Made by a program: the position numbers and the translations under genes
Notes under the pieces: model-generated
Told to the model about the DNA's origin: nothing
Databases searched by the model: none
Seen by the model: the letters and a program-made list of their open reading frames with translations, nothing else
Virus record (IMG/VR): IMGVR_UViG_3300024270_000002
Source of the DNA: a virus
Taxonomy: Duplodnaviria > Caudoviricetes
Length of the DNA: 64,000 nucleotides
Strand: one strand, 5' to 3'
Shown: positions 57,110 to 57,990 of the stretch, piece by piece
Numbering within the stretch: position 1 is the stretch's first letter
Layout of the letters: each line of letters starts with the position of its first letter

Positions 57110-57990
57110 CGGGCCTGACCGATAACTTCCCGTAAGGGAATGAAAGAGGTAAACTGACAAGACCTCGCTGTGATGAGCAGTACCTCAGGCAATGTGTGAC
57201 GGGACCTGTAAGAATTGAAAAGATTCTTACGAATATGCTAACCCCATGTTCTAACTTATCAATGATGAAATGAAAAGAGTTTAGTTGAGGGTCAACTGAC
57301 TGAACTATTCTCGCTCTCGCAAGGAGCTGGCTTCAACGCAAAAGGATTTGATGAGGTAAGGTAAGCTACAGGAAGTAAAATAGTTCGAGTTTAGCAAGCA
57401 AGGGCGACTTCCATTTATATCTGCTACGGTGGGTATAAGAAATATGAGTACAATGCGACGGAAAGTATTGAAGGCGGGTAGCATTCTTGCACTCAAAAGG
57501 TGTGAGAACTACGACAATAGTCTGTCTTCTGTCAATCTCAACTTAGCGTGGGTTGGAATCCCACCCCGGGTGCCAATTTGATTTTAACACCTCGGGATAG
57601 TTCGCACCTATCCCTTATATACCCGGGTAGCTCAGTGCTAGAGCGGTTGTCATAGGAAAACAATGTCATGAGTAAAAATCTATTGTTAGAAACAGAGAAA
57701 AGTGTCTTAAGCCCACAGCTGGTAAGGCAATGTGGGATATAAGGTGTCACAAGCATCTTGTATTTGATTGAAATGAATCTATAGGGGTGTAGCAACCTCG
57801 AACAGCCCGCAAGGTTGATAGTGGAATGATAATCGAGTAGCTGTTTCTGTAAAGGCGTAAGCAAGCCTGGAGCCCTTGTGCTGGGGTGACGAATTGCAGG
57901 CATGAGCGGTACTTCCCAAAAGGAAGTGGAAAAGTGACTAAAAAATAAGGTCATTAAGTCGTAGCAACTGAAAGATATATTCTCAGTCTT
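57110..57990 (+). ncRNA. GOLLD-like giant RNA containing a permuted tRNA-like element
   Basis: ~880 nt ORF-free, downstream of promoter; 3' motifs CAGCCCGCAAGGTTG, CTTCCCAAAAGGAAGTGG, GAAAGAT..TTCTCAGTC resemble GOLLD as recalled. Confidence 0.65.

Follow-up and report, generated by a model that had tools for sequence, protein, structure and literature searches.

A circularly permuted tRNA-like cloverleaf in the linker of a GOLLD RNA from an uncultured animal-gut jumbo phage

A GOLLD RNA within a phage tRNA array

We analysed a 64,000-nucleotide (nt) stretch of tailed-virus DNA (Caudoviricetes; IMG/VR record IMGVR_UViG_3300024270_000002), referred to below as the window, in which a GOLLD RNA carries within its linker a complete tRNA-like cloverleaf whose 3' part precedes its 5' part. 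ARAGORN lists 31 tRNAs on the GOLLD strand between 44.7 and 59.2 kb, and the GOLLD RNA lies within this array, flanked by two tRNA-Glu genes. A covariance-model search matched the Rfam GOLLD model (RF02032) at 57469-57989 on the plus strand, with 160.1 bits against a gathering threshold of 150 (E 5.1e-43) and with all model positions, 1-416 of 416, covered; the call of a GOLLD-like giant RNA made in a first-pass annotation of this DNA is thereby borne out. As in other GOLLD RNAs, the product is a large non-coding RNA (~800 nt or more) whose 5' half varies while its 3' half is conserved. The features of the locus are as follows.

57073-57101, plus strand: promoter-like site, TTAAAA-17 nt-TATAAT (consensus scan, 10/12 matches)
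57107-57993, plus strand: whole GOLLD RNA, ~885 nt (from RNA contigs and full-length conservation in relatives)
57107-57468, plus strand: GOLLD 5' domain, the variable half, outside the Rfam model; conserved with relatives L113, L041 and L001 and present in RNA contigs
57469-57989, plus strand: Rfam GOLLD match, 160.1 bits
57665-57989, plus strand: conserved GOLLD 3' domain, after the linker (Rfam alignment)

The stretch occurs in metagenomes of animal faeces and bovine gut, and six metatranscriptome runs contain it as well. Expression was read from assembled contigs of four metatranscriptome runs from two studies, with ends and levels that are approximate. RNA contigs span 57102/57107-57993 at a word depth of ~20-5400, while the flanks, including the neighbouring tRNA genes, have a depth of ~0-3; because of this contrast, the signal at the locus is RNA and not contaminating DNA. 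The GOLLD locus thus encodes an abundant expressed RNA with sharp bounds. The contigs start at 57102-57107, just past the promoter-like site, whose TATATTGTATAATATA motif is also conserved in L113 and L041. A minus-strand open reading frame (ORF) at 57538-57954 (138 residues) was considered as a gene and rejected, as it is interrupted in relatives. ARAGORN found no tmRNA and no tag in the window, and a blastn search of the locus against the INPHARED phages gave no match. The GOLLD relatives described below were located on IMG/VR contigs of 30-221 kb, and the source of the present RNA is an uncultured animal-gut jumbo phage.

Layout of the permuted module

The tRNA-like module falls in the part of the GOLLD model that has no consensus structure, which corresponds to the J13/15 linker (naming as in PMC12990946). 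Cryo-EM of other members of the family has shown that GOLLD forms a homo-oligomeric nanocage (PMC12286853), in which the J13/15 linker lies inside the cage and the GOLLD 5' and 3' domains touch (PMC12286853; PMC12990946). Read 5' to 3', the module starts with the variable loop and the T arm, followed by the acceptor 3' strand with G and CCA; a 45-nt spacer then leads to the acceptor 5' strand, the D arm and an anticodon-like arm.

57543-57547, plus strand: variable-loop equivalent TTAGC, tRNA positions 44-48, the entry point of the GOLLD 5' part; all 10 variants have AACTTAGY
57548-57564, plus strand: T arm GTGGG-TTGGAAT-CCCAC, with stem 57548-52/57560-64 and loop TTGGAAT
57565-57571, plus strand: acceptor 3' strand CCCGGGT, forming a helix of 7 base pairs (bp) with 57621-27
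57572-57575, plus strand: discriminator G (57572) and CCA (57573-75); CCA invariant in 10/10 variants
57576-57620, plus strand: spacer, 45 nt, with hairpin GGGATAG/CTATCCC (57594-57600/57608-57614); an invariant A-U precedes acceptor position +1
57621-57627, plus strand: acceptor 5' strand ACCCGGG, followed by TA as positions 8-9 (U8 A9)
57630-57644, plus strand: D arm GCTC-AGTGCTA-GAGC (from the sequence)
57645-57664, plus strand: G26 and anticodon-like arm GTTGT/ACAAT with the 9-nt loop CATAGGAAA; beyond 57664 the chain is GOLLD again

The T arm, CCA, spacer hairpin, acceptor 5' strand and D arm that the first-pass annotation had listed were each found where it had placed them. The set of tRNA tertiary nucleotides is complete: U8, A9, A14, G15:C48, G18, A21, G26, T54, T55, A58 and G53:C61, where G15:C48 and the other tertiary pairs are read by the established structure of tRNA. 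When the two parts were re-joined by script in the conventional order (57621-57664 followed by 57543-57575), ARAGORN at default settings called a tRNA in 10/10 re-joined variants and read the last arm as the anticodon arm. In place, in its permuted order, the module was called neither by ARAGORN nor by the Rfam tRNA model. The contiguous 5'-to-3' order of a canonical tRNA is absent, the 3' part (57543-75) preceding the 5' part (57621-64). A scanner for this layout, which as a positive control recovered one two-piece tmRNA (in L110), gave 0.6 hits per shuffle of 1.1 Mb of sequence. Because shuffles give so few hits and the helices covary in 10 variants (below), the permuted layout is more than chance. 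The covariation and the ARAGORN calls on all re-joined variants uphold the proposal of a permuted, 3'-part-first tRNA in GOLLD, and the module is a complete circularly permuted tRNA-like cloverleaf in the GOLLD linker.

Covariation among relatives

By scanning IMG/VR with DNA patterns, together with one metagenome scan, we found nine further distinct variants of the module, which fall into three groups; an equals sign joins loci that carry the same variant. The results of the metagenome scan were swamped by tandem duplicate tRNA genes, the useful loci being L229 and L239.

Subclade A: L001 (= L002), L113, L041 (= L148), L229, L239
Intermediate form: L410
Diverged subclade B: L403 (= L408), L404, L405

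A further locus, L003, is nearly identical to the window. Relatives that score above the GOLLD gathering threshold are L041 (156.2 bits), L148 (156.1), L113 (155.3) and L404 (152.8).

In the 10-sequence alignment (A2), 99.1% of 220 cells are paired and 12/22 pairs change on both sides; none of 500 shuffles reached the observed pairing and covariation, and slid controls pair at 35-57%. Across the 10 variants, 36 cells carry changes on both sides. Over alignments A1 and A2, the paired share of cells is 99-100%. The two unpaired cells reflect an alignment offset in the anticodon-like arm of L410, where ATACT/GGTAT pairs perfectly. The acceptor stem has no broken pair and covaries at six of its seven pairs, and the anticodon-like arm covaries at 4/5 pairs. 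All five pairs of the T stem hold everywhere, and one of them covaries (G-C to A-U, in subclade B); the D stem is invariant across the 10 variants.

Covariation extends beyond the helices to the pair 19:56, the elbow pair of the tRNA L-shape, with C-G in six of the variants and G-C in the other four. The two loops that supply it change together: TTGGAAT occurs with AGTGCTA (G56, C19), and TTCGAGY with AGTAGGCA or AATAGGAA (C56, G19). Since the elbow pair covaries, the module is selected for a tRNA-like three-dimensional fold, the L-shape.

The spacer is far less uniform, with a length of 16-45 nt among the variants. Its hairpin has three covarying pairs within subclade A, is different in L404, and is absent in L403 (18 nt) and L405 (16 nt), where the spacer is an A/U-rich single strand. 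No covarying partner for the hairpin loop, TTCGCAC/TTAGCAC, was seen within GOLLD by eye.

Among the loci examined, and with a covariance model of the module (R1), no GOLLD outside the present clade was seen to have the permuted form. R1 scored at most 43 bits there, at tandem tRNA gene junctions and never in a GOLLD linker. A separate scan for the GOLLD motif TACTTCC..GGAAGTGGA returned mostly chance matches, with the 3' signature in 6/118 loci, and was set aside as uninformative on prevalence.

Entry and exit of the GOLLD chain at tRNA positions 43/44

The first-pass annotation had taken CAAC (57539-42) and GTTG (57646-49) as the equivalent of the anticodon stem, with the rest of the giant RNA in place of the anticodon loop. 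The comparative data contradict both points. The CAAC/GTTG helix is broken in L001, and in subclade B, where the upstream sequence is TAAC and the downstream sequence ATCGG or ATCTG, pairing of the CAAC type is impossible; it is not conserved and never covaries. Instead, GTTGT (57646-50) pairs with ACAAT (57660-64), with compensatory changes at 4/5 pairs, the versions in relatives being GCTGT/ACAGT, GTTGC/GCAAT, ATCGG/CCGAT, ATCTG/CAGAT and ATACT/GGTAT. An energy fold of 57536-57668 picks the CAAC/GUUG closure, but with z = -0.56 it is uninformative, and the comparative data contradict it. Because GTTGT pairs locally with ACAAT, the cloverleaf is complete and the permutation point is 43/44 and not the anticodon loop. 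By these sequence comparisons, the GOLLD chain both enters and leaves the module at tRNA positions 43/44, its 5' part running into position 44 and its 3' part continuing from position 43.

A tRNA mimic rather than a decoder

Although the module has the cloverleaf, tertiary nucleotides and elbow pair of a canonical tRNA, it lacks the 5-bp anticodon stem with a 7-nt loop containing U33 and the conserved anticodon. The anticodon-like arm is one layer too long, and can be drawn either as 5 bp with a 9-nt loop or as six layers with a 7-nt loop closed by C-A, G-A, A-A or U-A; U33 is lost in L229, and the loop of L410 has 11 nt. As the "anticodon", ARAGORN gives AGG for subclade A, TAA for L410 and TGA for subclade B. 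With its short variable loop the TGA form has a class I body, and by the established identity rules no bacterial tRNA-Ser is known to have a short variable loop. The discriminator is G or C, the 1:72 pair is A-U or G-C, and the 3:70 pair is C-G, A-U or G-C, never G-U. We conclude that the module is a tRNA mimic and not a decoder. Because neither a synthetase identity set nor an anticodon is conserved, aminoacylation of the module appears unlikely, and the suggestion of a potentially aminoacylatable CCA end finds no support.

We also considered whether the AGG module might substitute for a tRNA-Pro, as ARAGORN lists none in the array. This was rejected, since a split tRNA-Pro(TGG) lies at 53134-53276; moreover, L041 has an intact tRNA-Pro and the "anticodon" varies between subclades.

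Normal-order inserts at the same site in other GOLLD RNAs

tRNAs sometimes sit in the GOLLD linker (PMC12286853; PMC12990946). With an improved GOLLD 3'-end motif we found at least 108 loci in IMG/VR, and in 27 of 108 listed loci ARAGORN placed a tRNA-like element in normal order 320-410 nt before the GOLLD 3' end. The insert of the present clade occupies the same site, ~320-450 nt before the 3' end. All of the normal-order loci that were tested (11/11) are Rfam GOLLDs, at 151-214 bits. In family, tRNA-array context and site, the present RNA is like the other GOLLDs, as these are described by Kretsch et al. 2025 (PMC12286853) and in what the review PMC12990946 relates in citing Morgado et al. 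2020.

The two arrangements differ in how the tRNA is joined to the chain and in the state of its acceptor. Here the chain joins at positions 43/44, there through the acceptor stem. Here we find a perfect 7-bp acceptor, NCCA and a 16-45-nt spacer; the normal-order inserts in the listed loci mostly have 5-6 acceptor pairs, with seven pairs in 4/27 and CCA in 2/27. This comparison of sequences suggests that acceptor features decay where the stem is the entry helix and persist where permutation frees its tip. Among the 27 normal-order inserts, which include those of L303, L304, L305, L314, L391 and L392, several have an anticodon loop of 8 nt or an unusual anticodon (ATT, ATA), and the published GOLLD-linker tRNAs may often be mimics and not working tRNAs.

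Relation to known permuted tRNA-like RNAs

The GOLLD family, its linker tRNAs and permuted tRNA-like modules such as those of YrlA and two-piece tmRNA are already known; among the papers searched, we found no description of a complete permuted cloverleaf with NCCA in a GOLLD linker. In two-piece tmRNA, an intervening segment is removed and two paired pieces result. The likeness of these RNAs (RF04321, RF01849) to the module lies in the gene order, in which a 3' part bearing the T arm and CCA comes ahead of the 5' part; the present RNA differs in having no tag reading frame, no tmRNA call and no G3:U70, and in having a full D arm and an anticodon-like arm. The circularly permuted tRNA genes of Cyanidioschyzon merolae, which Soma et al. 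are said to have described in 2007, reportedly also place the 3' part upstream of the 5' part, with a short intervening sequence linking the two at the acceptor end, and reportedly encode free-standing decoding tRNAs that pass through a circular intermediate and depend on a eukaryotic/archaeal splicing endonuclease. Here, by contrast, the anticodon is unconserved and the flanks are GOLLD domains.

With YrlA (RF02553; Chen et al. 2014, PMC4201824) the module shares the succession of T arm, acceptor stem and D arm. Searched with the YrlA model, the core of the module scores 28.2 bits against a gathering threshold of 69 (E 2e-4 in 201 nt), over model positions 23-85 only, and in the alignment 51 inserted nucleotides take the place of a 3-nt loop of YrlA. 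In contrast to YrlA, the present module has a local anticodon-like arm and an encoded CCA and is embedded in an RNA of ~885 nt. A Ro60/Rsr-binding helix formed by the 5' and 3' ends of the RNA was not found, the strand after the D arm pairing locally. By analogy, the module may act like the tRNA domain of a YrlA RNA, yet it is not itself a YrlA.

Permuted tRNA-like elements were also seen in the tRNA arrays of large phage contigs, in L141, L166, L161, L126 (= L164, L170), L119 (= L136), L154, L129 and L097. At the end of the acceptor stem they have a short loop (GCAA, GAAA, AATA and similar) in place of NCCA and a spacer, and ARAGORN called none of them, except for one in L141 that lies within a tRNA-Ser(cga) call.

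Proposed processing at the acceptor end, and alternatives to it

The 7-bp acceptor, NCCA and A-U(-1) are kept in 10/10 variants despite the variable spacer. The window's own tRNAs have U(-1) in 28/31 and an encoded CCA in 29/31. The sequence features of an RNase P substrate (a 12-bp stack of acceptor and T arm, an intact elbow, RCCA or NCCA at the 3' end, and the preferred U(-1)) are present in all 10 variants. There is a precedent for cleavage of such a module: in Mycobacterium smegmatis YrlA, which has a permuted tRNA-like module with a 7-bp acceptor, M1 RNA cuts in vitro at the predicted site, and in vivo two halves are found and CCA is carried, while YrlA RNAs with shorter acceptors escape RNase P and most YrlA RNAs are uncut (PMC4201824).

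From these observations we propose that the permuted order would turn the acceptor end away from the GOLLD body, and that in at least some of the molecules RNase P would cut at the 57620/57621 junction. Trimming of the A/U-rich spacer back to CCA would follow, and the product would be a nicked, two-piece GOLLD with a free tRNA-like CCA end, its pieces held together through the acceptor helix, tRNA tertiary contacts and contacts of the GOLLD 5' and 3' domains. By analogy with the published cage structures, the linker and the CCA end would face the cage interior, and our best guess for a ligand of the CCA arm would be a tRNA-binding factor and not a synthetase. We regard the chances that RNase P cuts at least some GOLLD molecules as evenly balanced.

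A number of observations weigh against this proposal. An RNA contig of run X17 (57528-57825, depth 771, with neighbours at ~970-1260) bridges the whole spacer; since it does, uncut RNA exists in quantity at least in the X17 sample and may be the main form there. The covariation of the spacer hairpin in subclade A would be odd for a segment that is discarded, and RNase P may not reach the module inside the assembled cage, access being perhaps possible only before assembly. The invariance of CCA rests on about four independent lineages, and AUUU 3' of the CCA is also semi-conserved. Finally, the RNA ends at the locus are read from assembled contigs. We did not count coverage holes as evidence of cleavage: contigs of runs X10, X16 and X18 have a gap at 57560-57603 and two X18 contigs begin at 57617, but this is the part that varies most between strains, and the contigs are assemblies.

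The first-pass annotation had tRNA-processing enzymes remove the spacer, and had named transcripts uncut across it as refuting evidence. The signals conserved in 10/10 variants and the YrlA precedent leave removal plausible, and the one bridging RNA contig, from run X17, stands on the other side and counts against obligatory processing.

The bridging contig, with its depth close to that of its neighbours, and the covarying hairpin fit with an uncut tRNA mimic, in which the spacer loops the acceptor stem as in most YrlA RNAs and the L-shaped module with its internal NCCA does no more than cap the structure stably or offer a docking site to a tRNA-binding protein or the ribosome. The resistance of most YrlA RNAs to RNase P (PMC4201824), the match of the module's core to the YrlA model (28.2 bits) and the location of the linker inside the cage (PMC12990946) point the same way. 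A mimic that is never cut does not readily explain, however, why the permuted form keeps a 7-bp acceptor, CCA and U(-1) in 10/10 variants when normal-order inserts dispense with the first two, nor why the spacer of L403 and L405 is a 16-18-nt A/U-rich single strand with no hairpin; moreover, the 7-bp acceptor is the YrlA feature associated with RNase P cleavage (PMC4201824). We consider the uncut mimic a serious possibility, though a tentative one.

Cleavage could also yield an aminoacylated two-piece RNA resembling tmRNA, whose charged CCA end acts with EF-Tu or the ribosome. The layout is the same as in the two-piece tmRNA of our positive control (L110), the acceptor is perfect and carries NCCA, and GOLLD is reported, in work cited in PMC12286853, to pull down ribosomes. 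We nevertheless find this improbable: there is no conserved identity set, as the discriminator, 1:72 and 3:70 vary and 3:70 is never G-U; the "anticodon" is AGG, TAA or TGA, the TGA form having a class I body; neither a tmRNA nor a tag is called in the window by ARAGORN; and large RNA domains are attached at positions 43 and 44.

Similarly, the locus might be a true permuted tRNA gene, whose parts are excised, joined at 43/44 through a circular intermediate and opened at the acceptor. ARAGORN does call every re-joined variant a tRNA, RNA joining is implied by phage tRNA genes split by tRNA-shaped inserts, and a polynucleotide-kinase-like ORF lies at 39469-40398. We hold this very improbable given that the anticodon is unconserved in close relatives, U33 is lost in L229, the loop of L410 has 11 nt and the stem is one pair long; furthermore, the flanks are conserved GOLLD domains, other GOLLDs have degenerate tRNA-like inserts at the same site, and no RNA ligase was found in the window.

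That the module is non-functional debris, two tRNA fragments brought by chance into the linker through recombination in an array full of homing-endonuclease ORFs and rearranged tRNA genes, is barely credible, because the substitutions in the acceptor, the T stem and 19:56 are all compensated in the 10 variants, with 36 both-side cells, and the module is retained in two diverged subclades; covariation contradicts debris.

The permuted order consists of one tRNA's 3' part, a spacer like those between tRNAs and the same tRNA's 5' part. It is what would be expected from a tandem duplication of a linker tRNA whose outer parts were then lost.

Possible significance

GOLLD and ROOL were recently shown to be RNA-only nanocages, and the tRNAs embedded in the linker are the main published clue to function. 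In the present clade, selection appears to keep a processing-competent acceptor end (7 bp, NCCA, U-1) exactly where the gene order is permuted, and processing in the permuted order would leave the tRNA tethered rather than released; in the commoner inserts of normal order these features have decayed. The module is a bacterial-virus addition to the few natural circularly permuted tRNA-like RNAs on record, and offers a natural construct for probing the purpose of the cage interior.

Returning to a GOLLD that is cut at the acceptor, we can imagine a 12-14-mer cage, every protomer nicked by RNase P, with some dozen covalently tethered tRNA arms and their free CCA ends in its interior, that acts as a multivalent tRNA decoy or trap; we think this particular function unlikely. 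If it were true, the targets would be tRNA-targeting defence enzymes of the host, CCA-modifying toxins, synthetases or ribosomes, and the permuted gene order would be an adaptation that keeps the processed tRNA on the cage and prevents its release.

Other RNA elements and neighbouring genes

Elsewhere in the window, 43349-43452 (plus strand) contains a further permuted tRNA-like element, consisting of a T arm, the acceptor strand CTTGGCG, a loop ACCAT, CGCCAAG and a D arm, and closed by a 5-bp stem of its flanks, ACTGT/ATAGT. It scores 39.2 bits with the Rfam YrlA model (gathering threshold 69; E 1e-6 in 1.6 kb) and is a more typical YrlA-like element than the GOLLD module. No TROVE/Ro60 Pfam match was seen in the 681-residue ORF that adjoins it. 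The sequence GAGCCAATRCTTATTTCT occurs on the plus strand at 43250, 43334 and 57016, with a downstream TTGGCC that is able to pair; the YrlA-like element is enclosed by one copy, and a second is found a short way ahead of the GOLLD promoter-like site.

Two tRNAs on the plus strand are split in the anticodon loop: the tRNA-Pro(TGG) at 53134-53276, by an insert of ~66 nt, and a long-variable-arm tRNA at 43571-43764, by an insert of ~100 nt. Both inserts are tRNA-shaped and end in CCA (Rfam tRNA matches at 53169-53232 and 43611-43709). A similar arrangement is described for Lak megaphages, where tRNA introns may encode a tRNA (PMC6784885).

The stretch 43770-44720 (plus strand, ~950 nt) has no ORF of at least 80 residues and no match to an Rfam family at E<=1. 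The T-arm-like sequence GGTTCGAGTCC is found near its end, as is a weak tRNA match at 44570-44632 (25 bits), and the stretch may encode a further large RNA with structure. A 309-residue ORF at 39469-40398 (plus strand), which shortly precedes the RNA gene array, encodes a protein with a polynucleotide-kinase-like P-loop domain (Pfam AAA_33, 3.7e-21; PHROG 505, 'polynucleotide kinase', 2.6e-18); the ORFs inside the array are HNH or other endonucleases.

Two other records carry related arrangements. In L409 (minus strand, first 190 nt of the reverse complement), the first hairpin of GOLLD is followed by the variable loop, the T arm, the acceptor 3' strand CTGGCCC, A and CCA, with unrelated sequence directly after the CCA and then ordinary tRNAs. 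Neither the matching 5' strand nor the 3' domain of GOLLD occurs in this 45-kb record, which is 30% complete, and L409 may represent a truncated copy, a chimera or a GOLLD that is split by nature. In L404, one tRNA array contains drum RNA (46 bits), ROOL RNA (296 bits) and the permuted-tRNA GOLLD (153 bits), as follows.

L404, 2541-2667: drum RNA
L404, 7558-8229: ROOL RNA
L404, 12269-12780: GOLLD RNA with the permuted tRNA

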